This document shows, piece after piece, positions 699 to 16,195 of a DNA stretch of 16,195 bases. The notes beneath the pieces were generated by a model. It saw only the letters and a program-made list of their open reading frames with translations. It did no database searches and was not told the DNA's origin. Origin of the DNA: a virus (taxonomy: Duplodnaviria > Heunggongvirae > Uroviricota > Caudoviricetes). Each line of letters opens with the position of its first letter. Position 1 is the stretch's first letter. Made by a program: the position numbers and the translations under genes. The stretch lies in the IMG/VR virus record IMGVR_UViG_2537561991_000020; one strand, given 5' to 3'.

Positions 699-846
699 GT
701 TGGAGTCATTACCAGCAGCATAATGATAATGCGTAAGGGCACCCAGAAGTTTTACCCATCTTTACGCATTTGATCTGGAACAGGTTTAACAGCGGATTAT
801 CAGGTCATTAAGCAAATATAACGCCCTGAGAATTTCGACAGGCAAA

Positions 847-876
847 AGAAAAAGGGGTTAGCATTTAGCTAACCCC
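847..876 (-). terminator. Rho-independent terminator downstream of the tRNA-Ser segment (minus-strand sense)
   Basis: Perfect 9-bp stem ggggttagc / gctaacccc (854-862 and 868-876) with a 5-nt loop, followed on the minus strand by a U-run (plus-strand A-run 847-853). Confidence 0.5.
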
Positions 877-886
877 TTATCTTATC

Positions 887-946
887 TGGCGGAAGCGCAG
901 AGATTCGAACTCTGGAACCCTTTCGGGTCGCCGGTTTTCAAGACCG
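887..946 (-). other. Partial tRNA-Ser (anticodon UGA, serT-like) 3' segment from anticodon stem to CCA; probable prophage att junction
   Basis: The reverse complement reads cggtcttgaaaaccggcgacccgaaagggttccagagttcgaatctctgcgcttccgcca, i.e. anticodon stem-loop (UGA), long variable arm, T-arm, acceptor 3' strand and CCA. No matching 5' half lies upstream on that strand. It sits next to the integrase gene. Confidence 0.6.
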
Positions 947-1087
947 AAGAAAAACAAATAAAAATCAGTGTAATACGTGAAATTGCTGAAAAGTTAATCA
1001 AATTTAACACCAAGAAAAATCAAGGTATTAGGAAGTTGCTCATAGCTAGTATACCAAGTCTTTTTGCCAGAAATTTTTCTGGATTGT

Positions 1088-2107: not shown

Positions 2108-2327
2108 TGTTCAGCGCCTCAAAATCGGGTTCAGCAGAAACCAGTTCAGATGTTTTTGGCATCGTTGTCAGACCGTGTGGAATATCCCTGCGGAGAACTA
2201 TGGGTTCGTTTTTAGGGCCGATTACAAATGGGATGCCGTGCAGTCTTAACTGGTGTTGCTGTTTTGTGTATCGCTCGTATTTCGTGATCTCTTTAATCTC
2301 TGCTGGAGATAGAGTTAATTCGTACAT
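2085..2327 (-). CDS. xis: Putative excisionase (80 aa), start chosen at the internal ATG at 2327
   Basis: Small ORF (MYELTLSPAEIKEITKYERY...) immediately upstream of int and overlapping its start by 23 nt, as xis/int do in lambda. The first residues resemble lambda Xis (MYLTLQEW...). Assignment is by position and size only. Confidence 0.45.
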   Translation of the reverse strand: MYELTLSPAEIKEITKYERYTKQQHQLRLHGIPFVIGPKNEPIVLRRDIPHGLTTMPKTSELVSAEPDFEALNNGKTKKK

Positions 2328-2394
2328 GTGGTCACGTGCCTTTACAGCATGACCGCCGCCACTATAGCTGGTGGGCGGCGATATGGGTTGAACA

Positions 2395-4866
2395 TTAAAA
2401 ATCAGCCTGACTCGGGAGCAGTTTTTGCCAGATGGCTGAAACGTATTTCGCCTGGTAACGTGCATCGTTCAGAGCGTTATGGCGTTCACCTTCGAATGGA
2501 ATAGTCGTTCTTGCGTCGAAATCCATCACCAGTCCCAGAGCAACCATCGTTCTTACATCGCGATCATTGGTGTAACGCCACGGGCAGGGGATCCCCTGCC
2601 GTTCATATGAACGGCGTAAAATCACGTTGTCGAAAGTTGCACCGTTACCCCAGACCTGAACAAAAAATTCACCGGAGTTTTCGTCGATAAATTCCCGCAA
2701 TTGTAACAGTGCATCATCTAACGGGATTTCATCGGTCATAATGGCAGATTGCGCTTCGCGTGATTGCTTAAGCCACCATTTAATGGTGTCCCGATCAATG
2801 ACTCCGCCAGCAGTTTCCAGATCAATAGTCTTACTAAATTCCGGTCCCATATCTCCGGTTTGCGGATCGAAAAATATTGCACCTATTGAGATAATCGGGG
2901 CATCAGGATTTTTTCCCATGGTTTCAAGGTCGATCATTAGATGGTCACACGTCCTGCTGGTGGATGTGATAACGTGATGACCGTTCACCGTAATTAAGGG
3001 ATCTGCCGTCTCGCCAGTTTCACTATCGCTGGCGTGATCCTGAGCGCTACCAGCATTCTCCTTGTGTGGATGTTCAGCGCCTTCCATTTCCTCCGGATCA
3101 TTTTCCTGAACTTCAACCTGATTCTCTTCATCGAATGTTTCCTGGTATGTTGCGTCACCCATCACCGCGCCACAATCATGGCAGTTGCCACCACCGCTTT
3201 GACCGCAGGCGGTGCAGACTTTTTCCGGTTCCTGTTGCGCTACTGGCTCAGGTTGTTTCGTTTCTGGCTCGTTTTGTTGCGTATTTGGGCTGTTTTGTTC
3301 CGCTTTCTGGTCGTTCTGTTCCGATTCTTGCTGGTTCTGGTTTACAGAATCGCGGGTTTCCATCCCCTTTACCCATTTCGGATCATTCGGGTCGCTAATC
3401 CCTGCAACAAATTCTCCGCGAGAGGCAGCAAGCAACTTATCGGCGTCAGGCTGGCTGATATTGGCTGCCTGCATAATTTTGTTTACTTCGTCAGCGGTAA
3501 CTTTTACCGGCTCTGGTTGTGCGGTCGTGTCAGATGCACCAGTATTTTGTTGTGAACCTGAGTATGTACTGTTTTTGCGGGCGAAATATTCTTCTTTCGT
3601 GATTTCAGTAGCCCCGGCAGCCAGTGCCTTATCCAGACCAGAAAGTTTGTTTGCGCGACCGTATTTTTCGCCATCCTTGTCGGTGAAGAGGAAGTAGAAC
3701 GGCCCCTCACGCTCTACAGATGGTTCGACTTCCACTTTGCATTCGGTTTTTTCGTTGTCCGGAATTGCCGTTTCCACTGCATCAGTTTCTGGTACTGACG
3801 ACGAGAGAGTATCAGTTGCGCTCTGATTTGTTCCTTCATCTTCAAACACGCCCTTTGTAGTCAGGTATTCAGTAATGTATTTGTTCAGTGCCACAGGGTC
3901 TTTGTGAATGTCGATCGGACGTTCACGGACAAGGCCAAAAATAGTCTGGCGGTCGTAGCGAAGGGCATCAGGCTGTTTGCGCATTGATGTCGAGATACGC
4001 TTCCAGTCTTCGCGGTCGTTGTCGATAACTTCATTTTTTGCCCAGCGATGGATGCTGCCGTCAATGTTTCCGGCATCCACATCACCAGGCCAGAGAGCGT
4101 AGGCCAGTTCGTCATCCAGTGTTTTCCATGTCTGCTTGTATTCGCGATGAATGGCAGCAATGACCAGGCTGATTTTTCCTGTTGAATTTTCAGTGTGCTG
4201 TTGATTGACTCTGGCGCGGGCGAGATCAACAACAGACGTGTATTTTCCGGTTTCCTTGCGTTCACCTTCGCGACGTTTTTTCCAGATGCGCATCTCTGCC
4301 TGAATTTCGGGCCATTTGGCACCAGGCTTACATTTATGCTTAACCCACCCGATGGCATGCAGCTTAAGCTCCGGATACATGGCGTTAACTTCTGGCATTT
4401 TCATCAACGCTTCAACGATATGTCCGTCGAATGTTGCCATGTCTTCCTGCAACAATTCCTGTGCGCTAATAACCATATCAACGGTGATGTTTTCACATGT
4501 GTCGAACTTAACCATGACAGCGTTCTGTACTTCAGGGGCCAGCTTGTCAAAAGTGACGTTCATCGGATCGGATTCAGTCTCAACCGGGACAAAGGAAGCA
4601 GACTCCTCATCCCAGCGGTTTTCCTGCATATATTCAGCATCCCAGGAATCGAGGGCAGGGCGGGGTATGCCGGGTTTATCCTCACAGACAATAAATTTAT
4701 AAGCGCAGTCCTGAGCTGCAGGGAATTGCTCCAGAAATTGCCAATGAAATTTTGCGCGTGCGCGACGCTCATCACCAGCTTCAATGGCAGTGGCCACCGC
4801 AACAGCGCTATCTTCTTTTATGGCCTGTTCATCAGGAATAGCAGCGCAAATAAAGACTTTACTCAT
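2395..4866 (-). CDS. Phage exonuclease-family protein (exodeoxyribonuclease VIII-like) with a C-terminal DnaQ-like DEDDh 3'-5' exonuclease domain
   Basis: 823-aa ORF with a GAGGT ribosome-binding site. The C-terminal region has the motifs MIDLETMG (Exo I, D/E) and [13 protein letters not shown] (Exo III, H...D). A central Q/E/N-rich low-complexity segment and a CxxC-x7-CxxC zinc ribbon ([16 protein letters not shown]) are present. It occupies the exo position between xis and the dicB operon. Confidence 0.75.
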
Positions 4867-4958
4867 TTTGTTTTACCTCATTACAGATTTAAGGGTGAAC
4901 AAATCCCTGCCATTGCTGGCATATAAGAATGAAACCGGATGTTTATTACGGAACTGTT

Positions 4959-5150
4959 TTAAAGACCTGCCGGGATTTCGTTATTATCCTGGTGAATAAC
5001 TTTATCGACCGGGTAACAGTTACCGGGAATTTTCTGTTCGGTTGCTGCAGTCACACACTCCTGCATTGTCCTGTGAACACTGACTGCAATATCAACTGGC
5101 TCTCCGGAAACAAGAAAAACTGTCAGAACAAGTGCAAATGCTGTATTCAT
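4959..5150 (-). CDS. ydfD: YdfD-like small lysis protein (63 aa)
   Basis: The internal-start product MNTAFALVLTVFLVSGEPVDIAVSVHRTMQECVTAATEQKIPGNCYPVDKVIHQDNNEIPAGL closely matches K-12 Qin YdfD as I recall it. Its ATG overlaps the dicB stop (ATGA). Confidence 0.7.
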   Translation of the reverse strand: MNTAFALVLTVFLVSGEPVDIAVSVHRTMQECVTAATEQKIPGNCYPVDKVIHQDNNEIPAGL

Positions 5151-5335
5151 TGCCAGCATCCTTTTTGTATCGGACGTAAACGGGCCAGCATTGAAAGAAT
5201 GCATATTTTATTTAATAGCTCCCGTTCGTGTTTTCTCTTGTTAATGGCATCTTCAGTAAATACAGGGTTACTGATAGTGACACCAATTTCAAAACAACCT
5301 TCAGACGTATTAACGTTTGGTAATAACGTTTCCAT
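5147..5335 (-). CDS. dicB: Cell division inhibitor DicB (62 aa)
   Basis: METLLPNVNTSEGCFEIGVTISNPVFTEDAINKRKHERELLNKICILSMLARLRPIQKGCWQ is near-identical to K-12 DicB as I recall it. ATG at 5335 (plus-strand cat 5333-5335) with a GAGGA ribosome-binding site; the longer track ORF (to 5440) is rejected. Confidence 0.85.
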   Translation of the reverse strand: METLLPNVNTSEGCFEIGVTISNPVFTEDAINKRKHERELLNKICILSMLARLRPIQKGCWQ

Positions 5336-5504
5336 TATCGCGTCCTCAACAATGAATTTTGTGATGTGGTGCCTGGTGCCTCCAGGTGACGTTAACCAGT
5401 TAACAATTAACGCCGGATACAGAGAATCCACCCATAACACTGTTTTTGGTTTTAACTGTTCCGCGTGCGCTCAGCCGCATTCACCGCATCACAAAATTCA
5501 CTTT

Positions 5505-5562
5505 AAAAACGGCGGCAGAGCAGTCACGGAGTAAAACTGATACCGCCAAACGTCACCAGAAA
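5505..5562 (-). ncRNA. dicF: DicF small regulatory RNA (ftsZ-targeting antisense sRNA)
   Basis: The minus strand reads tttctggtgacgtttggcggtatcagttttactccgtgactgctctgccgcc followed by a U-run, essentially the DicF sequence as I recall it. It lies between ydfC and dicB as in the K-12 dicB operon. Confidence 0.75.
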
Positions 5563-5902
5563 ATTGATAACAGAGGGCGTTGCAGCGGGGTTGTCGCTTA
5601 AGCGTATGGTCAACCTGACAACCCGGTGTCCTCAACGGGGAAGGAATAACCCCGCCATACTTACCGCCGCGCCATTTCGCGGAGTGCCACAACCGGAAGC
5701 GCACGGTCGACGAAAATTTAACGACAGGCTATCTATGAACCAGCTACCTCGCCGTGCGCTTTCGCGTTATGGTCTGACTTTTCATGGAAATATCCTTTCA
5801 GTAAACTGTCAGTGCCGGATGCTCACCCATGTCCGGCGCACGCACTCCACCTCACCCGTGGAGAACTCCTTAATTACCAACCTTAGCTTCGTTGGTTAGC
5901 TA

Positions 5903-6121
5903 TTAACGCGGGTATGTAATCATTCTGGCAATGCTTAATGCCGCTGCTTTTTCCAGCCTGGTGATATCCTGCTCCAGAGCGGACAGATTTTCAGCCTGCT
6001 TAGCCCTGGCTTCATTGGCCCATTTCAGATCCTGCGCTGCATTAATTTTCTGGCGCATCCACTCATAAAGTTCATCATCGGTATAGTCTGGCGAGATGAT
6101 GACGGGTTCTCGTTTCTGCAT
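5903..6121 (-). CDS. ydfC: YdfC-like prophage protein (72 aa)
   Basis: 72-aa ORF (MQKREPVIISPDYTDDELYEWMRQKINAAQDLKWANEARAKQ...) in the ydfA-ydfB-ydfC-dicF-dicB order. Size and synteny match K-12 ydfC; I cannot recall its sequence with confidence. Confidence 0.6.
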   Translation of the reverse strand: MQKREPVIISPDYTDDELYEWMRQKINAAQDLKWANEARAKQAENLSALEQDITRLEKAAALSIARMITYPR

Positions 6122-6150
6122 ACTGATTCCTCGCGGTGCTGCTTCGCTTA

Positions 6151-6279
6151 TCAGCCGTTAGATTTTGCCGAGCTGGAAAGCGCCTGTTTAAACTCACTGA
6201 AGCTGAGAGCTTCTTCGCCTTCGGCAAGGCCTTCGAAGTATTCTTCGTAAGCCTTTTCCATGATTGTGTCGAAATCCAT
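6151..6279 (-). CDS. ydfB: YdfB-like small protein (42 aa); not in the ORF track because it is under 60 aa
   Basis: Hand-translated minus-strand ORF: ATG at 6279 (plus-strand cat 6277-6279), product MDFDTIMEKAYEEYFEGLAEGEEALSFSEFKQALSSSQKSNG, stop at 6151-6153. A GGTGA ribosome-binding site precedes it. It sits between ydfA and ydfC. Confidence 0.6.
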   Translation of the reverse strand: MDFDTIMEKAYEEYFEGLAEGEEALSFSEFKQALSSSAKSNG

Positions 6280-6280
6280 A

Positions 6281-6436
6281 TCACTCACCTGAGTTTCTTT
6301 CCAGCCAGCGACGGGCACCATTTTCGGTTTTAAACGTTTTGCTTCTGGTATACGTCATCGCGGTAAACGTGCCGTCCTGGTTGGGAAACACGCCGCATAC
6401 CAGAGATTCGTTGTTGCCAAGATCGATAGTATTCAT
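6281..6436 (-). CDS. ydfA: YdfA-like small protein (51 aa)
   Basis: Internal-start product MNTIDLGNNESLVCGVFPNQDGTFTAMTYTRSKTFKTENGARRWLERNSGE. First gene of the dicB operon downstream of the operator/promoter region, consistent with K-12 ydfA. Confidence 0.65.
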   Translation of the reverse strand: MNTIDLGNNESLVCGVFPNQDGTFTAMTYTRSKTFKTENGARRWLERNSGE

Positions 6437-6511
6437 GCTGACCTCATTTCCCCTTAACGCCGGGGTAGCGGAACTGTTTGCTGAGAACACCGTGCGGTGT
6501 CTTGGTGGAGA

Positions 6512-6542
6512 TTAATTTAGAATAACCTAACAAATGTAGCAA
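6512..6542 (-). promoter_or_regulatory. Candidate sigma70 promoter of the ydfABC-dicF-dicB-ydfD operon (dicBp-like)
   Basis: On the minus strand: -35 TTGCTA (plus 6537-6542), 17-nt spacer, -10 TAAATT (plus 6512-6517). The spacer overlaps an operator-like half palindrome. Confidence 0.4.
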
Positions 6543-6567
6543 GTATTTTTGTTAGATTGGTCTAACA
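6515..6567. promoter_or_regulatory. Operator pair between dicA and ydfA: two 18-bp TGTTAG-N6-CTAACA-type palindromes
   Basis: Perfect inverted repeat tgttagattggtctaaca at 6550-6567. Imperfect copy tttagaataacctaaca at 6516-6532 overlaps the candidate promoter. The same motif recurs in the dicA-dicC intergenic region. Confidence 0.5.
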
Positions 6568-6603
6568 AAAAGAGTGAGGGAATCTAAGTATCTGAAAGGA
6601 GTG

Positions 6604-7011
6604 TTATTTTATTGATTTGTTTTTACGTGCTTTAAGCATTTCTTCGAAGAGTTTATTGAAATTCTCTACTCTTGCGCGCATTTCAGACAGTAAGGCTTCC
6701 TGCTCGGAGGAGGGAAGAGCATCGAATAATTCGATCAATTCTTTGTGGCTGGGAGTTAACTCGGTTTCCACATGAAGTTCTTGTGCTGGCACTGGTGCCT
6801 TGTCTTCGTCACCAAACATTAGCCATGTAGGCGAGCACTTCAGCGCATCAGCTAAAGCAAATAACCGCTTCCCGACCGGTTGGGTTTCGTCTCTTTCCCA
6901 TTGTGAAATTGTGACGTGAGCTACCCCAGCGAGGCGTGCAGCTTCTCGTTGTGTTAGGCGTAATTCTTTTCGTCGTGCCAGAACTCGCTGGCCTAGGGTT
7001 CTTGTATCCAT
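6604..7011 (-). CDS. dicA: DicA-like HTH repressor (cI-like, XRE family)
   Basis: 135-aa ORF. HTH region LTQREAARLAGVAHVTISQWERDETQP and C-terminus ...EMRARVENFNKLFEEMLKARKNK closely resemble K-12 DicA as I recall it. Divergent from dicC. Confidence 0.85.
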   Translation of the reverse strand: MDTRTLGQRVLARRKELRLTQREAARLAGVAHVTISQWERDETQPVGKRLFALADALKCSPTWLMFGDEDKAPVPAQELHVETELTPSHKELIELFDALPSSEQEALLSEMRARVENFNKLFEEMLKARKNKSIK

Positions 7012-7078
7012 AGTTAGGTAATTCTAATTTTTCTTGACTTAGGTATCCCGTGCACATTACTGTTAGGAATATCTAACA
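7012..7078. promoter_or_regulatory. dicA-dicC divergent control region with two TGTTAG-N6-CTAACA-type operators and a candidate dicC -35
   Basis: Perfect palindrome tgttaggaatatctaaca at 7061-7078; imperfect agttaggtaattctaatt at 7012-7029; TTGACT at 7035-7040 as a candidate -35 for dicC with no convincing -10. Confidence 0.5.
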
Positions 7079-7091
7079 AGAGGGGGCTTTG

Positions 7092-7319
7092 ATGCTTAAA
7101 GTTGACGCAATTACTTTTTTTGGCAGCAAAACAAAACTTGCCAATGCCGCAGGAGTGAAACTGGCAAGTGTTGCTGCATGGGGGGAACTGGTTCCTGAAG
7201 GTCGCGCGATGCGCCTGCAAGAGGCATCCGGCGGGGAACTTCAGTACGACCCCAAAGTTTATGACGAATATCGTAAGGCAAAGCGGGCGGGGCGGTTGAA
7301 CAATGAAAATCACCCCTGA
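7092..7319 (+). CDS. dicC: DicC-like Cro-type regulator (75 aa)
   Basis: MLKVDAITFFGSKTKLANAAGVKLASVAAWGELVPEGRAMRLQEASGGELQYDPKVYDEYRKAKRAGRLNNENHP matches K-12 DicC as I recall it. ATG at 7092 is preferred over the TTG at 7089 because the AGGGGG ribosome-binding site (7081-7086) is better spaced. Confidence 0.8.
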   Translation: MLKVDAITFFGSKTKLANAAGVKLASVAAWGELVPEGRAMRLQEASGGELQYDPKVYDEYRKAKRAGRLNNENHP

Positions 7320-7824
7320 ACAGGTTTGTGAGGCTCTGGATGCCTGGGTATGCCGACCAGGAATGACACAGGAGCAGGCGACGATATTAATCACGGAAGC
7401 ATTCTGGGCTCTGAAAGAACGCCCGAACATCGATGTTCAACGCGTCACGTTTAATGATGGCGAGGTTGATCAACGGGCGTTGGGCGTTAACCGGGTGAAG
7501 ATATTCGAACGCTGGAAAGCTATCGACACCAGGGATAAGCGGGAAAAATTCACGGCGCTGATTCCGGCAATTATGGAGGCTATCCGGATCAGCGATTTCA
7601 GGTTGTATTGTGAAATTACTGACGGAAAAAGCATTACGTACATGATCGCCGGGTTAAACAAAGAATATGGTGATGTGGTGGAGTCCGGGCTGCTTTTTGC
7701 GGATCCATCTGTTGTGGAACGTGAGACTGACGAGCTTATAGAAAAAGCTATTGCTTTCAAGCATGCGTATCGTCAGCAATACCAACAAAAAGCTGGATGG
7801 AATTATGAGCCTTCTTTTTGCTGA
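7303..7824 (+). CDS. YdaT-like protein in the cII position
   Basis: 173-aa ORF directly downstream of the cro-like gene with a 17-nt overlap. Weak motif resemblance to Rac YdaT (MKI...; REKFTALIPAIMEAI versus REKIQKLIPAILAIL). Confidence 0.5.
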   Translation: MKITPEQVCEALDAWVCRPGMTQEQATILITEAFWALKERPNIDVQRVTFNDGEVDQRALGVNRVKIFERWKAIDTRDKREKFTALIPAIMEAIRISDFRLYCEITDGKSITYMIAGLNKEYGDVVESGLLFADPSVVERETDELIEKAIAFKHAYRQQYQQKAGWNYEPSFC

Positions 7825-8770
7825 ACGCCCACTGGTTATAAACACACAGCTTGCGATGAAGATTGGCTTAAATGAAGCCATTGTGTTGCAGCAGTTGCAT
7901 TACTGGTTGAGAGATACCAGTTCCGGTATGGAATGTGACGGGGTTCGCTGGATTTATAACACAACAGAACAATGGCTGGAACAGTTCCCGTTCTGGTCAG
8001 AGTCAACGTTAAAACGCGCATTTGCAAGTCTGAAAACGCTGGGGCTTTTGCGTTGCGAAAAGCTCAACAAATCAAAGCGTGATATGACTAATTTTTACAC
8101 GATTAATTACGAGAGTGAGCTTTTAGATGGTGGCAAAGTGAGCGAATCCATCAGGTCAAAATGCGCCGCTCCATCGGGTCAAAATGACACGATGGAAGAG
8201 GTCAAAATGGCACGCTCCATTGGTTCAAAACGACCCAATGTCATCGGGTCAAAATGGCCTGATGATCTTACAGAGAATACAACAGAGATTACTACAGAGA
8301 ATAAAAACACTTCTCGTCCGGAAGCTTCGCAACCGGACCCGCAGACGGCTGAACAGGATTTTTTAACCCGACACCCTGACGCGGTTGTGTTCAGTGCGAA
8401 AAAACGCCAGTGGGGAAGTCAGGAAGATTTGGCGTGCGCACAGTGGATCTGGGGACGAATCGTGAGTCTTTACGAGCAGGCTGCCAGCGATGATGGCGAG
8501 ATCACGCGACCGAAAGAACCAAACTGGACCGCATGGGCCAATGACGTGCGCACAATGCGGATGCTGGATGGCAGAAGCCACAGACAAATTTGCGAAATGT
8601 TTGGTCGGGTACAGCGAGATCCATTCTGGGTAAAAAACATCATGAGCCCGTCAAAGCTTCGCGAAAAATGGGACGACCTGGTCATCCGCCTGGGGCGTTC
8701 ACCTGTACAGTGTTGTGTGAATCATATTTCTGAACCGGATACCGAAATTCCGCCTGGTTTCAGGGGATAA
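7805..8770 (+). CDS. Putative phage replication initiator (O-like), with internal iterons
   Basis: Long ORF after the cro/cII-like genes. The N-terminal region (ERPLVINTQLAMKIGLNEAIVLQQLHYWL) looks like a helix-turn-helix replisome-organizer domain. The gene contains direct repeats (iterons) as lambda O contains ori. Start is uncertain: ATG 7805 preferred, 7751 and 7763 possible. Confidence 0.6.
   Translation: MSLLFAERPLVINTQLAMKIGLNEAIVLQQLHYWLRDTSSGMECDGVRWIYNTTEQWLEQFPFWSESTLKRAFASLKTLGLLRCEKLNKSKRDMTNFYTINYESELLDGGKVSESIRSKCAAPSGQNDTMEEVKMARSIGSKRPNVIGSKWPDDLTENTTEITTENKNTSRPEASQPDPQTAEQDFLTRHPDAVVFSAKKRQWGSQEDLACAQWIWGRIVSLYEQAASDDGEITRPKEPNWTAWANDVRTMRMLDGRSHRQICEMFGRVQRDPFWVKNIMSPSKLREKWDDLVIRLGRSPVQCCVNHISEPDTEIPPGFRG
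8154..8256. repeat. Iteron array (candidate origin of replication): five ggtcaaaatg-type repeats at about 23-bp spacing
   Basis: ggtcaaaatg at 8154-8163, 8177-8186, 8200-8209 and 8247-8256, plus variant ggttcaaaacg at 8222-8232. Spacings are 23, 23, 22 and 25 bp. An AT-rich tract with three acagaga repeats follows (about 8257-8310). Confidence 0.55.
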
Positions 8771-8810
8771 GTGGTGATTTTAGGGCATAAAGTAATGTTC
8801 AGGAGGACTT

Positions 8811-9218
8811 ATGGCAAAAGTATTTACACAGGAAGAGCGGGAAAAAATTAAAGGACAGGTGGTGGAACTCGTGCGCCAGAGCGGTCGTGAGACGTTACGG
8901 CAACTGGAAGCTAAAACAGGTGCGACAAGATATCTGATGAGCGTTCTTGCCAGAGAGCTGGTTGCCAGTGGTGATGTATATCACTCTGGCTATGGGGTGT
9001 TCCCGTCAGAACGGGCTCGTAAGGACTGGCAAAACGCCCGCAAAAAACTCTCGAGGGCAAAGGTGAAGAAACCTGTTGTGGTTGATCCGGGCCTTATCTG
9101 GACATTACCCGACGGAGAAATACGCCGCTACGACAGGCGTATGAACATAATCTGTCGCGAGTGCCGGAAGAGCGAAGTTATGCAGCGTGTATTGGCGTTC
9201 TATCAGGGATATGCCTAG
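8811..9218 (+). CDS. Hypothetical protein (135 aa), possible HTH-containing
   Basis: ORF with a good ribosome-binding site (caggagga, then ATG at 8811). No confident homology recalled. Confidence 0.55.
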   Translation: MAKVFTQEEREKIKGQVVELVRQSGRETLRQLEAKTGATRYLMSVLARELVASGDVYHSGYGVFPSERARKDWQNARKKLSRAKVKKPVVVDPGLIWTLPDGEIRRYDRRMNIICRECRKSEVMQRVLAFYQGYA

Positions 9219-9264
9219 AATTGTCACAGGTAATGAAATTAAAGAGTATTGGTTCGGATATGAA

Positions 9265-9294
9265 TTGACATTTTCGCGGCACAGAGCTAAAAAT
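9265..9294 (+). promoter_or_regulatory. Candidate sigma70 promoter in the AT-rich leader upstream of the SIR2-like gene
   Basis: TTGACA at 9265-9270, 17-nt spacer, taaaaat at 9288-9294. It would give a roughly 290-nt leader to the ATG at 9587. Confidence 0.3.
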
Positions 9295-9586
9295 AGCCTA
9301 CTTGTTGGTTTTGTGTGAAAAGCAGACATTTTGAGGCTCAGGATTTGTTATCAAATAAGACCAATACTTATCTATATTAATACACATTAAATACTGTGCA
9401 ATACATTATTGCATTTTATTAGATAAGCGATATTTAGGGAAAAGAAAAGTCATAGAAAACAGGCCGCTATTTGTTGTTGGATTTTATAGGCTATATCTAG
9501 ATTATCTTGCCACTGCGGTCTCTGTTTACCTAACAGCTTGGGCTTCTTTGCATGCAAGTTTGTAATAACAAGAGTAATCAAACGGA

Positions 9587-10618
9587 ATGTCTATTAATCC
9601 TAAACTTAAGCGTATCGCGCGACGCTATCCAGCGTTATTCCAATATGAGTCCCCCTATATGGCAAGAAAATTAATAATATTCGGCAACGGTCTCGGTATG
9701 GCTTTAGATCCTGCTCACTTCTCCTTAGACAGAGCGTTGGAAGAAATTTGGCATCGCCCCAATTTTTTAAAAGATATCCACAAGCAACTTATCGAGCGTT
9801 GTCTTCAGCGGCAAGGTCCACCAGAAGGAGAACATGAGTTGGATACCCTTCACCAGGCTGTCACATATTGTAAAGCTCTTGCTCAAATTGGAGAGGGGAA
9901 CGTGCATTGGCTTACTGAAGATGGACTAAACTTCCCCAAAATTACCGCCACTTATATTCACAAAGTTGCAACCAGGTTGCATAATTACGATAAAGGTTTG
10001 CCACAAAGATTCGAAAATGCGCTTGTGGAGTTTGTAAAGAACACACACTCACATATCGCGACATTAAACTATGACAAATTATTATACAATTCATTCATAG
10101 ATAATGATATATTCAACGGGTATGATGGGGTTTTAGTTGATGGGATGCTAAGCCACGGATTTTCCTCTGCAGCGCTCGAACGGAAATACAATCGTAGGTT
10201 TGGTTATTATTTGCACTTGCATGGTTCACCACTATTTATTAATCAGCATGAAAATGTTTTAAAACTTTCACGCTCACAACTTACTCTTGACATAGATGAA
10301 CCTAGTGAGCATATAGTGTTAACTCATATAAAAAGAAAACCGTCAGTTATAGCAGCATCTAATGTTCTTTCTACGTACTGGGATTATTTGCAGTTTGCAT
10401 TATTTGAATCAGAAGAAATAATATTGTTTGGTTACTCTGGTCTCGATATTCACCTTAACCTGCTTATTCGACCTTACCTAACCTCTAAGCCTTTAAGAGT
10501 AATTGAGTGGAGCGGTGCTGGTGAACAAAACGCTCGTGAGATATATTGGAAAAACCAGTTGAGACGGGAAGTTACTGTAATTAGGTTGGATAACATCACT
10601 GATTTTATTGATTGGTAG
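9587..10618 (+). CDS. Standalone SIR2-like (SIR2_2-type) putative NAD+-hydrolase; candidate anti-phage defence cargo gene
   Basis: 343-aa ORF in a visibly AT-rich block. Four ordered motifs parallel Thoeris ThsA-type SIR2 domains: IIFGNGLGMALD (Gly-rich loop), TLNYDKLL (conserved Asn), YYLHLHGSP (catalytic His), IILFGYSGLD. Start codon is uncertain because the ribosome-binding site at 9587 is weak. Confidence 0.6.
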   Translation: MSINPKLKRIARRYPALFQYESPYMARKLIIFGNGLGMALDPAHFSLDRALEEIWHRPNFLKDIHKQLIERCLQRQGPPEGEHELDTLHQAVTYCKALAQIGEGNVHWLTEDGLNFPKITATYIHKVATRLHNYDKGLPQRFENALVEFVKNTHSHIATLNYDKLLYNSFIDNDIFNGYDGVLVDGMLSHGFSSAALERKYNRRFGYYLHLHGSPLFINQHENVLKLSRSQLTLDIDEPSEHIVLTHIKRKPSVIAASNVLSTYWDYLQFALFESEEIILFGYSGLDIHLNLLIRPYLTSKPLRVIEWSGAGEQNAREIYWKNQLRREVTVIRLDNITDFIDW

Positions 10619-10688
10619 CGCAATGCGAAGTTAAAGAGGCAGCCTCATATTTATCAGAGCTGGTGTACGTCCAATACAGGAGGTTATC

Positions 10689-10778
10689 GTGCTGGTTCTC
10701 AAATGCGCGCTGGCTATTGCGGCTGTAGTGGCAATTTATTGTCTTGCTATTGTTCTTATGGATCGCCTTTCTGATTGA
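10689..10778 (+). CDS. Putative 29-aa hydrophobic membrane peptide
   Basis: GTG at 10689 preceded by a consensus AGGAGG (10678-10683) with 5-nt spacing. Product VLVLKCALAIAAVVAIYCLAIVLMDRLSD is one predicted transmembrane helix; stop TGA at 10776-10778. Not in the ORF track because it is under 60 aa. Confidence 0.35.
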   Translation: MLVLKCALAIAAVVAIYCLAIVLMDRLSD

Positions 10779-10989
10779 TTTTATATTGGCGAGGTGACGG
10801 GAGTTAAGTAGAATTGCTGCGGGTGCTTGAGGCTGTCTGCCTCGGGCATGCCACCGTAAGGCAGACAGAGAAAAGCCCCAGTTAACATTACGCGTCCTGC
10901 AAGACGCTTAACATTAATCTGAGGCCCAATCTATGCTTCACAAACGTAGGTTAGCCTCTTACGCGCCGAAAGGCAAGGAGAAGCAGGCT

Positions 10990-11145
10990 ATGAAGCAGCA
11001 AAAGGCGATGTTAATCGCCCTGATCGTCATCTGTTTAACCGTCATAGTGACGGCACTGGTAACGAGGAAAGACCTCTGCGAGGTACGAATCCGAACCGGC
11101 CAGACGGAGGTCGCTGTCTTCACAGCTTACGAACCTGAGGAGTAA
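10990..11145 (+). CDS. hokD: Hok-family type I toxin HokD/RelF (51 aa)
   Basis: MKQQKAMLIALIVICLTVIVTALVTRKDLCEVRIRTGQTEVAVFTAYEPEE matches K-12 HokD as I recall it. Internal ATG at 10990; stem-loops typical of hok mRNA leaders lie upstream (10833-10868, 10882-10916). Confidence 0.85.
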   Translation: MKQQKAMLIALIVICLTVIVTALVTRKDLCEVRIRTGQTEVAVFTAYEPEE

Positions 11146-11213
11146 GAGACCAGGCGGGGGAGAAATCCCTCGCCACCGCTGATGTGTCAGGCATCCTCAA
11201 CGCACCCGCACTT

Positions 11214-11245
11214 AACCCGCTTCGGCGGGTTTTTGTTTTTATTTT
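11214..11245 (+). terminator. Rho-independent terminator after hokD
   Basis: Stem cccgc (11216-11220), loop ttcg, stem gcggg (11225-11229), followed by tttttgtttttatttt. Confidence 0.6.
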
Positions 11246-11361
11246 CAACGCATTTGAAGTTCTGGACGGTGTCGGAATAGAATCAAAAATACTTAAGTAG
11301 CGCGCAGGGATAAGAGGGATGGTCCCTTAAAGGGGAGAGCTAATTATCCGGAAGGATTCTG

Positions 11362-11613
11362 ATGATGAACATCGAAGAACTGCGTAAAATTTTTTGTGAA
11401 GATGGCCTCTATGCTGTGTGCGTTGAAAATGGAAATATTGTTAGTCATTACCGCATTGTGTGTTTGCGAAAGAATGGGGCTGCGTTAATTAATTTTGTGG
11501 ATGGTCGAGTGACAGACGGATTTATCTTGCGCGAAGGTGAGTTTGTCACTTCATTACAGGCACTGAAAGAGATCGGAATAAAAGCTGGCTTTTCTGCTTT
11601 TTCAGAAGAATAA
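11362..11613 (+). CDS. Hypothetical prophage protein (83 aa; Rem-like by size and position)
   Basis: ORF with ribosome-binding site ggaagga. Follows hokD as rem does in K-12 Qin, and K-12 Rem is also 83 aa as I recall; the sequence itself was not verified. Confidence 0.5.
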   Translation: MMNIEELRKIFCEDGLYAVCVENGNIVSHYRIVCLRKNGAALINFVDGRVTDGFILREGEFVTSLQALKEIGIKAGFSAFSEE

Positions 11614-11679
11614 ACTCATCTACAATCTTGCGCGGGGCTGAACTCCCGCTGAGTAACACCGTGCCGCCGGAGGAAACCG

Positions 11680-11958
11680 ATGGCACGCAACGCAAAATAT
11701 TACAATCATGATAATTCGACCGTTCTTGCCCACACGCACGAGCGGTATTCTCACGCATTTAAGTCAGACTGGTACCAGCATCCCCCATGCACTGAAGAAC
11801 AGGCCGAATGGCTCATTCAGTGTTACCGCAGGCGCGGATGCGAGGTTAAAAAAGCCCTTAGCCTCGACTACCGTCACTGGATAATCTCCGTCGGGCTTCC
11901 TTACTCCGAACGCCCACCGCGTCTGTCCCGCACATTCCAGCAACGCATCTGGAGGTAA
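11680..11958 (+). CDS. Hypothetical protein (92 aa)
   Basis: ORF whose stop abuts the GTG start of the following gene, suggesting translational coupling. No homology recalled. Confidence 0.5.
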   Translation: MARNAKYYNHDNSTVLAHTHERYSHAFKSDWYQHPPCTEEQAEWLIQCYRRRGCEVKKALSLDYRHWIISVGLPYSERPPRLSRTFQQRIWR

Positions 11959-11959
11959 C

Positions 11960-13009
11960 GTGCGGGTATTACTTCGACCTGTTCTGGTACCGGAACTCGG
12001 GCTGGTGGTCCTTAAGCCCGGTCGCGAATCACTGCCGGTTTTTCATTGCGGCAGGGTGCTGGTGGAGCCGGAACCGAAAAGCATGCGCGGTCTGCCGTCC
12101 GGAGTCGTCCCTGCCGTTCGCCAGCCGCTGGCGGAGGATAAATCATTACTGCCATTTTTCAGCGATGAGCGTGTGATTCGTGCTGCTGGCGGCGCTGGCG
12201 CACTGTCTGACTGGCTCCTGCGTCATGTCAAATCCTGCCAGTGGCCTCATGGTGACTACCATCACAGTGAAACCGTCATACATCGTTATGGTACCGGCGC
12301 AATGGTGTTGTGCTGGCACTGCGACAACCAGCTGCGCGACCAGACCTCCGAATCACTCGGGCAACTTGCTCACCAAAACCTGTCTGCATGGATGATTGAC
12401 GTCATACGCCATGCAATGAATGGCTCGCAGGAACGGGAATTATCGCTGGCTGAATTATCCTGGTGGGCGATCCGCAATCAGGTGGCGGACGCGCTACCGG
12501 AAGCGGTATTACGTCGTTCGCTGGGGTTGCGTGCGGAAAAAATCCGCTCAATGTACCGTGAAAGCGACATCGTACCGGGAGAGCAGACCGCCACCAGCAT
12601 ACTGAAACAGCGCACAAAAAATCTTGCGCCGCTGCCTCACGCCCACCAGCAACAGAACCCGCCACAGGAAAAGACGGTGGTCAGCATTGCTGTTGATCCG
12701 GAGTCTCCGGAATCTTTAATGAAGCGACCTAAACGTCGCCGTTGGGTAAATGAGAAATATACGCGCTGGGTAAAGACACAGCCGTGTGCGTGTTGTGGTA
12801 AGCCAGCCGACGATCCCCATCACCTGATTGGTCATGGTCAGGGCGGAATAGGGACAAAAGCCCACGATATTTTCACGCTACCGTTGTGCCGGGAGCATCA
12901 CAACGAACTTCATGCTGATCCGCTGGCATTTGAAGAAAAGCATGGTTCCCAGATTGATTTAATTTTTCGTTTTCTTGATCGCGCCTTTGCAACCGGCGTG
13001 CTCGGGTAA
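11960..13009 (+). CDS. DUF968-family protein (YdfU-like) with a C-terminal Cys/His-rich putative HNH-like motif
   Basis: 349-aa ORF with GTG start and a GGAGG ribosome-binding site (11951-11955). C-terminus CACCGKPADDPHHLIGHGQGGIGTKAHDIFTLPLCREHHNELH. Position between the rem-like gene and rusA matches ydfU in K-12 Qin. Confidence 0.65.
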   Translation: MRVLLRPVLVPELGLVVLKPGRESLPVFHCGRVLVEPEPKSMRGLPSGVVPAVRQPLAEDKSLLPFFSDERVIRAAGGAGALSDWLLRHVKSCQWPHGDYHHSETVIHRYGTGAMVLCWHCDNQLRDQTSESLGQLAHQNLSAWMIDVIRHAMNGSQERELSLAELSWWAIRNQVADALPEAVLRRSLGLRAEKIRSMYRESDIVPGEQTATSILKQRTKNLAPLPHAHQQQNPPQEKTVVSIAVDPESPESLMKRPKRRRWVNEKYTRWVKTQPCACCGKPADDPHHLIGHGQGGIGTKAHDIFTLPLCREHHNELHADPLAFEEKHGSQIDLIFRFLDRAFATGVLG

Positions 13010-13021
13010 AAGAGGTTACTG

Positions 13022-13381
13022 ATGCGTATAGAGTTTGTTTTGCCTTACCCGCCGACGGTGAACACCTACTGGCGACGTCGTGGCAGCACATATTTTGTGT
13101 CAAAAGCCGGTGAGCGTTATCGCCGGGATGTGGCACTTATTGTTCGCCAGCAGCGGCTGAAATTAAACCTGTCCGGAAGGCTGGCGATAAAGATTATTGC
13201 AGAGCCACCGGATAAGCGCCGCCGCGACCTGGACAATATCCTGAAGGCACCACTGGATGCGCTTACGCATGCCGGACTACTTATAGACGACGAGCAGTTT
13301 GATGAAATCAATATTGTGCGCGGTCAGCTCGTTTCTGGTGGGCGGCTGGGCGTGAAGATTTACAAAATTGAAAGTGAGTGA
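13022..13381 (+). CDS. rusA: RusA-family Holliday junction resolvase
   Basis: 119-aa ORF. YPPTVNTYWRRRG...AEPPDKRRRDLDNILKAPLDALTHAGLLIDDEQ parallels DLP12 RusA (...[23 protein letters not shown]...). Typical ninR-region location upstream of Q. Confidence 0.8.
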   Translation: MRIEFVLPYPPTVNTYWRRRGSTYFVSKAGERYRRDVALIVRQQRLKLNLSGRLAIKIIAEPPDKRRRDLDNILKAPLDALTHAGLLIDDEQFDEINIVRGQLVSGGRLGVKIYKIESE

Positions 13382-13944
13382 GCATAAATATGATATACCC
13401 GGAAATTACAGGCAAAAGCGGTGAGCATTTACGCCTGAAAACGCTGGAAAGTGTCTGGATCCAGGGGAAACTGCGTATGTGGGGGCGTTGGTCGTATATT
13501 GGCGACGGTAAGACGGGAAATATGTTCAACCAATTACTGACCTCTAAAAAGCTGACAAAAACGGCAATTAACGAGGCGCTCCGGAGGATGAAAAAAGCGG
13601 GTCTGGACAAACCTGAACTTGAGGCTTTTTTGCGGGATATGATCAACGGCAATCAAAAAAGCTGGCTGGCACATTGTACCGATTCAGAGGCGTTAATAAT
13701 CGACAGGGTTATTGGTGAAGTACTGGCAGGTTATCCCGGGCTGCTCAATGTTCTGAGTCAGCGTTATGTGGGGCGGGGGATGACTAAGCGCAAAATGGCT
13801 GAACTGCTGAATGATGCACATCCGGAATGGAGTTTAAGAACCTGTGAAAGACGCATTGAGCATTGGCTAAAGGTGGCAGAATTTATTTTGTACAAACCAA
13901 TGGTTATGGCTTTTGGTATAGAGAAAAAAGTTATTGCTTTTTGA
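13378..13944 (+). CDS. Putative late-gene antiterminator Q (QuuD-like family)
   Basis: Positioned after rusA and directly before a strong intrinsic terminator. Scattered motif similarity to QuuD-type Q proteins as I recall them (LESVW..W, LLTSKK, RRMKKAG, HCTDSEA). Start is ambiguous between GTG 13378 and ATG 13390. Confidence 0.55.
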   Translation: MSINMIYPEITGKSGEHLRLKTLESVWIQGKLRMWGRWSYIGDGKTGNMFNQLLTSKKLTKTAINEALRRMKKAGLDKPELEAFLRDMINGNQKSWLAHCTDSEALIIDRVIGEVLAGYPGLLNVLSQRYVGRGMTKRKMAELLNDAHPEWSLRTCERRIEHWLKVAEFILYKPMVMAFGIEKKVIAF

Positions 13945-14021
13945 CGTAAAAACTGCTTTAATTCCGGTAAGCTTCGCAAAGCTGTACCGCGAGGCGAATA
14001 GCAGACATGGACATTTGAAAG

Positions 14022-14046
14022 AGCCCGCTTTTTGCGGGTTTTTTTA
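14022..14046 (+). terminator. Rho-independent terminator about 80 nt downstream of Q (tR'-like)
   Basis: Stem cccgc (14024-14028), loop ttttt, stem gcggg (14034-14038), then a 7-T run. Confidence 0.6.
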
Positions 14047-14366
14047 TGACTGAAAAACGGCACGGGGCGTTAAACGCGCTGGTGGTTGCTAATACCGGTC
14101 TTTCAACTTGCTGGCTTTTTCGACAAGAGTTATTGGTATGTCACGTTAACCGGAAAATGGAAAAAGGCATGCTAAAACAGCAGGATATGACCGAAACCGC
14201 CAGAGTGGTGTTTAATGAATTAAGCGTCACCGAACCGGCGACCGCCGGGGAAATTGCGCAGAACACTTATCTTTCACGCGAACGCTGCCAGTTAATACTG
14301 ACCCAGCTTGTTATGGCGGGTCTGGCAGATTATCAGTTCGGTTGTTACAGACGCCTTCCTCAGTGA
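14046..14366 (+). CDS. Hypothetical small protein, possibly winged-helix-like; start uncertain
   Basis: 106-aa ORF whose first ATG overlaps the terminator T-run. Internal ATGs around 14157-14172 are alternative starts. Its stop lies within a terminator hairpin. Confidence 0.35.
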   Translation: MTEKRHGALNALVVANTGLSTCWLFRQELLVCHVNRKMEKGMLKQQDMTETARVVFNELSVTEPATAGEIAQNTYLSRERCQLILTQLVMAGLADYQFGCYRRLPQ

Positions 14367-14380
14367 AGGCTTTTTTATTT
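14353..14380 (+). terminator. Rho-independent terminator
   Basis: Stem gccttc (14353-14358), loop ctcagt, stem gaaggc (14365-14370), followed by ttttttattt. Confidence 0.45.
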
Positions 14381-14516
14381 GTGGTAATGGGCGGCTGGTG
14401 GGTGTTAGCGGCACCTGCCAGCCATCTGCTCATGCGTTGGGGTCACAAGCAAACCTCAGGCCCATCTGCTTTGCGCAAAAGCGGTATGAGCCTATCAGAG
14501 AAGTGCTTATTGATCT

Positions 14517-15575
14517 ATGGCTAATACTGTAAAAATATCCAGTTGTGAGTTAATCAACGCTGATTGCCTGGAATTTATCCAGACCTTACCGGAAAACTCT
14601 GTCGATCTGATAGTCACAGACCCGCCATACTTTAAAGTGAAGCCCGAGGGCTGGGATAACCAGTGGAAGGGCGACGATGATTACCTGAAGTGGCTGGACC
14701 AGTGTCTGGCGCAGTTCTGGCGGGTGCTGAAACCTGCCGGAAGTCTTTACCTGTTCTGTGGTCATCGCCTGGCATCTGATATCGAAATCATGATGCGTGA
14801 ACGCTTCAGTGTGCTGAACCATATTATCTGGGCGAAGCCGTCCGGACGCTGGAACGGATGCAACAAGGAAAGCCTGCGGGCGTATTTCCCCGCCACAGAG
14901 CGCATTCTGTTCGCGGAACATTATCAGGGGCCGTATCGTCCGAAAGATGCCGGGTATGCGGCGAAGGGCAGTGCACTGAAACAGCATGTGATGGCCCCGC
15001 TGATTTCTTACTTTCGTGATGCGCGCGCGGCCCTGGGGATAACGGCAAAACAGATTGCAGATGCCACAGGAAAGAAAAACATGGTGTCGCACTGGTTCAG
15101 TGCCAGTCAGTGGCAGCTACCGAACGAAAGCGATTATCTGAAATTACAGTCGCTGTTTGCCCGGGTGGCAGAAGAGAAACATCAGCGGGGAGAACTGGAA
15201 AAGTCCCATTACCAACTGGTCAGCACATACAGTGAGCTGAACCGGCAGTATATGGAACTGCTGAGTGAATATAAGCATCTGCGGCGGTATTTTGGCGTGA
15301 CGGTGCAGGTGCCGTATACCGATGTGTGGACGCATAAACCGGTGCAGTTCTATCCCGGGAAACATCCGTGCGAAAAACCGGCAGAAATGCTGCAGCAGAT
15401 AATCAGCGCTAGCAGTCGTCCGGGTGACCTGATTGCAGATTTTTTCATGGGGTCGGGTTCGACAGTGAAAGCGGCACTGGCGCTCGGGCGTCGTGCAATT
15501 GGCGTTGAGCTGGAGACTGAACGTTTTGAGCAGACGGTTCGGGAAGTACAGGATTTAGTCAGCCAGAACGGATGA
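14517..15575 (+). CDS. Orphan DNA methyltransferase (N6-adenine/N4-cytosine type; DPPY motif before the FxGxG AdoMet motif)
   Basis: 352-aa ORF with DPPY catalytic motif (VTDPPYF) near the N-terminus and AdoMet-binding motif DFFMGSGST near the C-terminus. No adjacent restriction endonuclease gene. Confidence 0.8.
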   Translation: MANTVKISSCELINADCLEFIQTLPENSVDLIVTDPPYFKVKPEGWDNQWKGDDDYLKWLDQCLAQFWRVLKPAGSLYLFCGHRLASDIEIMMRERFSVLNHIIWAKPSGRWNGCNKESLRAYFPATERILFAEHYQGPYRPKDAGYAAKGSALKQHVMAPLISYFRDARAALGITAKQIADATGKKNMVSHWFSASQWQLPNESDYLKLQSLFARVAEEKHQRGELEKSHYQLVSTYSELNRQYMELLSEYKHLRRYFGVTVQVPYTDVWTHKPVQFYPGKHPCEKPAEMLQQIISASSRPGDLIADFFMGSGSTVKAALALGRRAIGVELETERFEQTVREVQDLVSQNG

Positions 15576-15615
15576 TATTGAAGAATTAATTACGCGTCGT
15601 TATTATGCGGCTCCC

Positions 15616-15691
15616 GGCCCTTTAGCTCAGTGGTGAGAGCGAGCGACTCATAATCGCCAGGTCGCTGGTTCAAATCCAGCAAGGGCCACCA
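15616..15691 (+). tRNA. tRNA with CAU anticodon (tRNA-Ile2, ileZ-like, or tRNA-Met)
   Basis: Cloverleaf folded by hand: acceptor ggccctt/aagggcc, anticodon loop ctCATaa, T-loop ggttcaaatcc, discriminator A and encoded CCA. Confidence 0.85.
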
Positions 15692-15698
15692 TCACATA

Positions 15699-15775
15699 CC
15701 GCTATTAGCTCATCAGGAAAGAGCGCCAGCCTTCGAAGCTGGCTGCGCGGGGTTCAAGTCCCCGATGGCGGTCCA
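15699..15775 (+). tRNA. tRNA-Arg (anticodon UCG), argN-like
   Basis: Acceptor ccgctat/atggcgg (one G-U pair), anticodon stem ccagc/gctgg with loop cTTCGaa (U33, anticodon UCG), T-arm cgggg-ttcaagt-ccccg, encoded CCA. Confidence 0.75.
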
Positions 15776-15788
15776 TTATCTGCATCAT

Positions 15789-15865
15789 GCGTTGTTAGCT
15801 CAGCCGGACAGAGCAATTGCCTTCTAAGCAATCGGTCACTGGTTCGAATCCAGTACAACGCGCCA
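15789..15865 (+). tRNA. tRNA-Arg (anticodon UCU), argO-like
   Basis: Acceptor gcgttgt/acaacgc, anticodon loop cTTCTaa (anticodon UCU), T-loop ggttcgaatcc, encoded CCA. Confidence 0.85.
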
Positions 15866-15880
15866 CACTTATTTTCCCTG

Positions 15881-15904
15881 GCTCGCTTTTGCGGGCTTTT
15901 TTTT
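15881..15904 (+). terminator. Rho-independent terminator after the tRNA cluster
   Basis: Stem gctcgc/gcgggc (one G-U pair), loop tttt, followed by an 8-T run. Confidence 0.45.
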
Positions 15905-15992
15905 AAATGTCTCACAATTCAGACGGTTGACAGTTGTCTGTTTTGCGGGGAGTTTGTTAAAAGAAACTGGCATGGTGAATCCCCCTGTGCGG

Positions 15993-16195
15993 CTGTCTCT
16001 TGATCAGATCTCCTGATCAAGAGACTTCATCACCAGGTAACCCTCAACCATATCCTGAAGTCTGAACCAGCCATCCCACATGACTACCCAACCGGGGCGA
16101 CCGGTGCGTTTGCTGTCATGCCATCGCCCCAGTTTCGCCAGTTTCAGACAGGCCCATTTCAGTGTCGGCATCTGTGACGGAAGCGGTTTTCCTTC
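15993..16195 (-). mobile_element. End of an IS4-family (IS50/Tn5-like) insertion sequence; the element continues beyond the window
   Basis: The 19-mer ctgtctcttgatcagatct (15993-16011) matches the IS50 inside end as I recall it, including two GATC sites. The adjacent minus-strand ORF encodes a C-terminus homologous to Tn5 transposase. Confidence 0.6.
16004..16195 (-). CDS. IS4-family (Tn5 Tnp-like) transposase, C-terminal 63 codons; 5' part outside the window
   Basis: Hand translation of the minus strand gives ...LKWACLKLAKLGRWHDSKRTGRPGWVVMWDGWFRLQDMVEGYLVMKSLDQEI*, which parallels the Tn5 Tnp C-terminus (...LQWAYMAIARLGGFMDSKRTGIASWGALWEGWEALQSKLDGF...). The stop codon lies inside the terminal repeat, as in IS50. 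Confidence 0.6.
   Translation of the reverse strand, partial: EGKPLPSQMPTLKWACLKLAKLGRWHDSKRTGRPGWVVMWDGWFRLQDMVEGYLVMKSLDQEI

Follow-up and report, generated by a model that had tools for sequence, protein, structure and literature searches.

The window, by which we mean the whole stretch of DNA analysed here (16,195 nucleotides), covers the left arm of a lambdoid prophage. It carries genes for an integrase and an exonuclease, dicB, cI/cro-like genes, a SIR2-family gene, hokD, rem and RusA, as well as genes for a DUF1133 protein and a DNA methyltransferase and three tRNA genes. The tRNA trio is the ileZ-argN-argO arrangement that lies upstream of stx in Stx phages. A copy of an insertion sequence starts 127 bp downstream of this Met(CAT)/Arg/Arg cluster, with its transposase gene antisense to the phage late genes. 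The position, in the late-gene leader, is the one where Stx phages carry stx. The features around the insertion are collected in Table 1.

Two observations concern the rest of the prophage. Positions 1–713 of the window are not contiguous with the prophage in three genomes that are 99.9–100% identical to it elsewhere; in one of these, Escherichia coli FDAARGOS_1059, the prophage adjoins yccA. The source genome probably carries it at another integration site. The SIR2-family gene (9659–10618, plus strand) owes its name to the annotation 'SIR2 family protein' in FDAARGOS_1059, which is identical in this region, and may be anti-phage defence cargo.

Table 1. Features around the insertion (window positions) and loci of solo palindromes.
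Feature	Position	Strand	Remarks
Three tRNA genes (anticodons CAT, TCG, TCT)	15616-15865		first annotated tRNA-Ile in related genomes
Terminator-like hairpin and T-run after the tRNAs	15880-15905
C-run CCCC	15981-15984	+	first half of the target palindrome CCCC-N8-(A)GGGG; right half outside the window, past the element
8-bp phage target CTGTGCGG	15985-15992	+	repeated on the far side where this insertion is found complete
19-bp terminal repeat CTGTCTCTTGATCAGATCT	15993-16011	+	identical to the IS50 inside end (IE)
ISEc13 copy, inside-end-proximal 203 bp	15993-16195	-	100% identical to E2348/69 ISEc13 copies; runs past the window end
Perfect 13-bp inverted repeat	15995-16025	.	arms 15995-16007 GTCTCTTGATCAG and 16013-16025 CTGATCAAGAGAC; spacer ATCTC 16008-16012
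Three GATC (Dam) sites	16002-16005, 16007-16010, 16015-16018	.	read from the sequence; third site in the inner arm
Transposase gene 3' end, 63 codons and stop	16004-16195	-	putative C-terminal dimerisation region; from translation
Solo palindromes	L009, L049, L059, L082, L085, L091, L103, L108, L122, L151-L175		loci outside the window

On the plus strand the junction between phage and element, at 15992/15993, reads ...ggtgaatccccctgtgcgg|CTGTCTCTTGATCAGATCTCCTGATCAAGAGACTTCATCACC.... The element begins with a 19-mer that has no second match in the window even if up to three mismatches are allowed (chance expectation 0). An earlier, sequence-only reading of this DNA had identified the 19-mer as the inside end (IE) of Tn5/IS50, complete with its two Dam sites. 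The 19-mer was not found in the literature searched, and for this reason its identity was settled by comparison with DNA copies of IS50. The exact 19-mer occurs in at least 120 stretches in a scan of one genome per species. A 1534-bp IS50 copy (L066) carries it at one end and the canonical outside end (OE), CTGACTCTTATACACAAGT, at the other; the open reading frame in between (MITSALHR...AKDLMAQGIKI) is the Tn5 transposase sequence. Plasmid features annotated as 'IS4-like element IS50R family transposase' match a copy similar to L066 from the first base. Hence, the 19-mer of the window is the IS50 IE at 19 of 19 positions, both Dam sites included. Dam methylation inhibits the use of the inside end in IS50, and by analogy Dam could control the inside end of the element studied here.

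Phage and genome sequences that match the upstream region stop matching precisely at 15992. From 714 to 15992 the window has 100% identity with two E. coli genomes, those of FDAARGOS_1059 and O111:H2 strain 12A. In FDAARGOS_1059 and in phage PhiR49_2 the site is empty and uninterrupted (...aatccccCTGTGCGGaggggcaatc...), with the continuation ...aatccccctgtgcggaggggcaatcagcgag.... The element boundary is exactly the first base of the 19-mer. That the 19-mer should sit at a true boundary had been named beforehand as one of two points on which the interpretation depends, the other being a match to the IS4 family. The empty site in prophages that are otherwise 100% identical bears out the first, and the identity of the element, given below, bears out the second. 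The exact prophage backbone together with the insertion is found in no complete E. coli genome of the collection; the backbones that are 100% identical are empty.

Which element is it? From 15960 to 16195 (236 bases, 33 of which are flank) the window matches E. coli O127:H6 E2348/69 with 100% identity, and NCBI lists the feature in that genome as an 'IS4-like element ISEc13 family transposase' (e.g., WP_000244363.1). The name ISEc13 rests on this NCBI annotation of identical copies, and the compared portion is 203 of 1550 bp (13%) of the element. Under the ISfinder convention, isoforms share about 95% DNA identity; here the identity is 100% over that portion. E2348/69 and IMG/VR contigs also share the junction and the phage flank with the window. 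The backbone of the E2348/69 prophage differs from the window upstream of about 15900, and no other difference between the two is detectable.

The complete copy at the same junction in E2348/69 (L001 4034–5583) is 1550 bp long, contains a single open reading frame of 457 amino acids and ends in ...ATTTGTGTATAAGAGACAG. The other, outside-type end of complete ISEc13 copies is CTGTCTCTTATACACAAAT, and both ends start with CTGTCTCTT. Ends with 5'-CT are found in the IS10, IS50 and ISPepr1 subgroups of the IS4 family (PMC2266710), and the ends of ISEc13 conform to this pattern as expected of a member of the IS50 subgroup. We are therefore almost certain that positions 15993–16195 are the inside-end portion of a copy of ISEc13, a known 1550-bp element of the IS4 family, IS50 subgroup, in a lambdoid prophage.

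ISEc13 is already named and widespread, and so it is not a new IS50 relative. In the enteropathogenic strain E2348/69 alone the stretch matches the chromosome at 30 places, and matches to it are present in 3516 of the 5426 complete E. coli genomes. The name is in use in several genome papers. It does not occur in the text and searched supplements of the IS4 family review (PMC2266710), according to which the cataloguing of natural relatives of IS50 goes back at least to 2004–2008. The sequence-only reading thus flagged a mobile element correctly, and its description as a natural IS50 relative with a conserved end fits, but this insertion sequence already has a name and is very common in E. coli.

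The window ends inside the element. Assemblies usually break within insertion sequences that are present in many copies, and several IMG/VR contigs break at the same place. A simple and complete insertion would continue for another 1347 bp of ISEc13, with CTGTGCGGaggggcaatc behind it. An older, frameshifted ISEc13-like copy (L004; UTI89 1120779–1122350) has the same left junction and a different right flank and is about 92% identical; it is found in about 1245 genomes and is common in B2-type, UTI89-like strains. Either the insertion at this site of the prophage is old, or it has happened repeatedly.

On the minus strand, an open run of 63 codons ends with ...GYLVMKSLDQEI (...MKSLDQEI), followed by the stop codon TGA (16004–16006) inside the left arm of the palindrome and hence inside the IE, as is also the case in IS50. 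The full ISEc13 transposase, taken from L001, matches the Tn5 transposase structures (PDB 1MUH, 1MUS, 4DM0) over its whole length (E = 7e-83), and the two proteins are 39% identical. Over 49 residues, the tail encoded in the window shares 45% identity with that of IS50. It had been described as only partly similar to Tn5 transposase, which is accurate, and as having diverged, which is not: its conservation is slightly above that of the full transposase.

In profile searches the full L001 protein scores 70.1 for Pfam Tnp_DNA_bind (cut-off 24), 32.1 for DDE_Tnp_1 (cut-off 23) and 511.6 bits for NCBIfam NF033590 (cut-off 160); the C-terminus of the last family also matches the window tail (E = 5.6e-20). 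Pfam Dimer_Tnp_Tn5 stays below its cut-off of 26.7 with both the full protein (24.1 bits) and the window tail (19.1 bits); even so, the alignment of this region to the sequences of the Tn5 structures reaches residue 469. The IS4 family is defined by a DDE transposase encoded in a single open reading frame and containing a Y(2)R(3)E(6)K motif (PMC2266710). Both are present in the identical full copy: D93, D193 and E323 align with the catalytic residues D97, D188 and E326 of Tn5, and Y316, R319, E323 and K330 align with Y319, R322, E326 and K333.

ISEc13 and IS50/Tn5 each encode a single transposase with what appears to be the same three-domain layout, but their lengths differ (1550 versus 1534 bp), and ISEc13 lacks the start of the inhibitor protein Inh. 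Where Tn5 has M56, ISEc13 has Q52, and the next methionine is M127 (ATG starts considered). A sigma-70 consensus promoter for the transposase gene was not found at the stringency of our scan. By homology to Tn5, the single DDE transposase would bind the two 19-bp ends and form a dimeric synaptic complex; ISEc13 would then be excised via hairpins at its ends and pasted into its target.

Could the end instead belong to IS50 or Tn5 itself, or to a laboratory mini-Tn5 inserted during transposon mutagenesis? Such an origin would explain a 19-bp end identical to the IS50 IE, and laboratory mini-Tn5 ends with an SfiI linker are present in public genomes (L023, L027 and L053). However, the bases after the 19-mer are CCTGATCAAGAGACTTCATC in the window, TGATCCCCTGCGCC in IS50 and GGCCGCCTAGGCC in the mini-Tn5 linker, the encoded tail is far from the nearly 100% identity to Tn5 transposase that this origin demands, and the stretch is 100% identical to ISEc13. 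IS50 proper is also rejected on its 39% protein identity, the unrelated DNA after the 19-mer, the mostly 8-bp target duplication and the missing M56 start. The sequence has already refuted an IS50 or mini-Tn5 origin, to which we attach hardly any probability. Even less probable, and already refuted by the empty sites, is that the 19-mer and its palindrome belong to the phage itself, perhaps as a regulatory hairpin with no more than a likeness to the IS50 end. The site is non-coding and lies downstream of the tRNA terminator, where hairpins are common; yet prophages that are 100% identical up to 15992 have nothing of what follows from 15993 on and continue with different sequence, and copies of the 203 bp are found on chromosomes and plasmids at dozens of sites that are unrelated to each other.

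A more serious contender is that the window contains only a remnant, either a truncated ISEc13 fragment or a solo end palindrome, and no functional copy. The window stops 203 bp into ISEc13, degenerate and frameshifted copies occupy the same junction in UTI89-like strains, and solo 35-bp palindromes (described below) exist at other loci. Against this, the 203 bp are 100% identical to the intact E2348/69 copies, whereas old remnants are about 92% identical, and the reading frame is open across all 63 codons. The inner arm of the window ends in GAGAC-TT like that of full elements, whereas solo palindromes end in GAGAC-AG. The early stop of the window is, as noted above, what assembly usually produces in a multi-copy insertion sequence. 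We consider a remnant unlikely, and the reading we prefer remains that of an ISEc13 copy cut by the end of the contig.

As a side observation, the IE is followed by GGCCGCCTAGGCCGAATTC in Bradyrhizobium sp. SSBR45G (L023), Paraburkholderia terricola LMG 20594 (L027) and Herbaspirillum frisingense GSF30 (L053). We take this to be an SfiI-type linker like those of laboratory mini-Tn5 vectors, which suggests that these are transposon-tagged strains or that the assemblies contain vector sequence.

For the far end of the element the sequence-only reading predicted a target duplication of 9 bp, the length found in IS50. This turned out to be wrong. At the same insertion, E2348/69 (L001) and the IMG/VR contig L141 read CTGTGCGG|IS|CTGTGCGGaggggca, a duplication of 8 bp. 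The duplication is 8 bp long at six distinct ISEc13 sites (the window's included) and 9 bp at two; one related element has an apparent duplication of 10 bp.

The flanks of the element show where ISEc13 and its relatives insert. We derived the target rule from 40 distinct left and 31 distinct right flanks of elements with the inner arm CCTGATCAAGAGAC. The left flanks are nearly all pyrimidine at −13 to −11 and have R-G at their end. CCCC, CCCT, CCTCT or CTCT occurs between −15 and −8 in 37 of the 40, compared with none of 36 Parashewanella-type elements and none of 11 IS50 copies, all of which have the same IE. On the right, AGGG, GGGG or GAGAGG starts at +9/+10 in 29 of the 31 flanks. Together the two patterns describe a target CCCYT-N8-ARGGG of which the N8 is duplicated. 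The preference of the ISEc13 clade for such palindromes is strong. The target in the window, CCCC-CTGTGCGG-AGGGG (15981–15992 plus the far flank), fits the rule; other loci at which CCCYT-N8-ARGGG is seen include L126–L130, L134, L145, L148 and L183–L195, next to L001.

Some targets appear to have been hit more than once. The phage site of the window is occupied in the opposite orientation, at the same 8 bp, in L150, and a second prophage site is occupied in both orientations at the same 8 bp (L145 and L186). Two orientations at the same 8 bp point to repeated independent insertion and not to a single ancestry.

Many of the targets in Serratia, Phytobacter, Chania and Scandinavium have the form CCCTCACCC..CCCTCTCCC-N4-GGGAGAGGG, which is the BoxC/PIT/TMECO repeat, described as CCCTCTCCC-N3-5-GGGAGAGGG (PMC4666352). 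A survey from 2015 reports neither transposase remnants near these repeats nor a link between them and any transposase (PMC4666352). Our results suggest that ISEc13-clade elements may insert in either orientation, with an 8-bp duplication, at the centre of CCCYT-N8-ARGGG palindromes, among them the tips of BoxC/PIT/TMECO hairpins.

Other clades with the same IE behave differently. They have loose, Tn5-like targets: the flanks of Parashewanella-type elements follow the pattern G..Y.R..C, which is the published target preference of Tn5. An IS50-like clade in Serratia nevei, again with the same IE, is found after AAAAA-GGGGC-N8/9 (L013, L017, L021, L036, L068, L104 and L114) and appears to hit terminator-like hairpins, a second and different target rule. 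Palindrome tips are also the targets of IS1397 and ISKpn1, which belong to the IS3 family and insert into the loops of REP/BIME palindromes. ISEc13 resembles these elements in aiming at the tip of short chromosomal palindromic repeats; unlike them, it has a transposase of an unrelated family, and its targets are not REP sequences but BoxC/PIT/TMECO-type repeats and small CCCC...GGGG palindromes.

The inside end of ISEc13 is itself part of a palindrome. The sequence-only reading had noticed a perfect 13-bp repeat that overlaps the stop codon of the transposase gene, and we find it as described, with the TGA in the left arm; IS50 has a different sequence there. The folding energy of the palindrome is −29.4 kcal/mol as RNA (z = −4.85) and −14.9 kcal/mol as DNA (z = −5.0). 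It would form a stable hairpin at the 3' end of the transposase mRNA, for which a regulatory role is conceivable. We also considered a classical intrinsic terminator, which is rejected: neither strand has a T-run after the palindrome, and the terminator scan did not pick it up.

The inner arm of the palindrome is coding sequence: its codons TCT CTT GAT CAG specify S-L-D-Q in the transposase tail. A perfect 13-bp repeat is far beyond chance, and for this reason we take it to be a historical inverted copy of the end that has turned coding; an inverted end copy that now encodes S-L-D-Q is the most likely origin. ISEc13-like elements retain the palindrome in Escherichia, Scandinavium, Phytobacter, Pantoea and Budvicia; those of Pseudocitrobacter do so too, apart from a single synonymous change. 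It decays, along with changes in the amino acids, in the clades of Serratia nevei and Photorhabdus/Xenorhabdus. A comparison of nucleotide invariance gave no significant sign of DNA-level selection on the inner arm: three of the four arm codons are nucleotide-invariant, compared with 40% of amino-acid-invariant codons (P ~0.18).

The palindrome of the inside end also occurs, though rarely, without a transposase gene. The solo palindrome CTGTCTCTTGATCAG-ATCTC-CTGATCAAGAGACAG is found at at least nine loci of the genome scan, a count that includes two close one-base variants (L049 and L122), and at about five distinct metagenome sites. This 35-mer consists of the IE and an inverted copy of its first 15 nucleotides and has CAG at both tips. 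One could imagine a proliferating miniature transposon, but we rejected this candidate: the 25 metagenome stretches represent only about five distinct sites, and there are no direct duplications. The flanks that adjoin the 35-mer are inverted copies of one another in L082, L167, L009 and L175. Such inverted flanks would fit a template switch at the palindrome that deleted the element.

In the lldD-trmL spacer of E. coli M8 (L176) the 35-mer stands in place of a segment of about 95 bp that, in other strains, separates the tips of a pair of inverted BoxC hairpins. The same replacement is seen in many gut-metagenome contigs; L177–L180 are the comparison strains. The spacer has at least five length variants among E. 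coli genomes. A broader proposal would combine these findings: the ISEc13 clade follows a palindrome-centre target rule that is undescribed for Tn5, and its IE palindrome seeds rare 35-bp remnants by template switching, which could contribute to the variability of BoxC loci. We put this forward tentatively, as somewhat more likely to be wrong than right. Only the target rule and the solo palindromes may be new. If palindrome-directed targeting is true, it would be a natural example of retargeting within the Tn5 family and would link BoxC repeats to a mobile element.

The ends of ISEc13 have a practical side. While the IE is identical to that of IS50, the outside-type end agrees with the IS50 OE in 17 of its 19 bases; position 4 is a T, as it is in the IE and the engineered mosaic end (ME), CTGTCTCTTATACACATCT (PMC4248319). 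Because ISEc13 has ends that equal or closely resemble the IE, OE and mosaic end of Tn5, EPEC E2348/69 and other strains with ISEc13 may re-mobilise Tn5 or mini-Tn5 insertions. In turn, the Tn5 transposase may act on ISEc13.

The insertion may also matter to the prophage. In a scan of L001 3900–5700 we found six terminator-like sites where 1.6 are expected. One is the tRNA terminator outside the element. The other five, two of which overlap, are hairpins with T-runs inside ISEc13 (L001 4498–4671 and 4903–4915, plus strand), on the strand opposite the transposase gene. Since they face phage late transcription in this prophage, the expression of the late genes may be affected. A further hairpin, ACAAATCCCC-ACCC-GGGGATTTGT (L001 5553–5580), overlaps the inner part of the outside 19-bp end, so that ISEc13 has subterminal palindromes at both of its ends.
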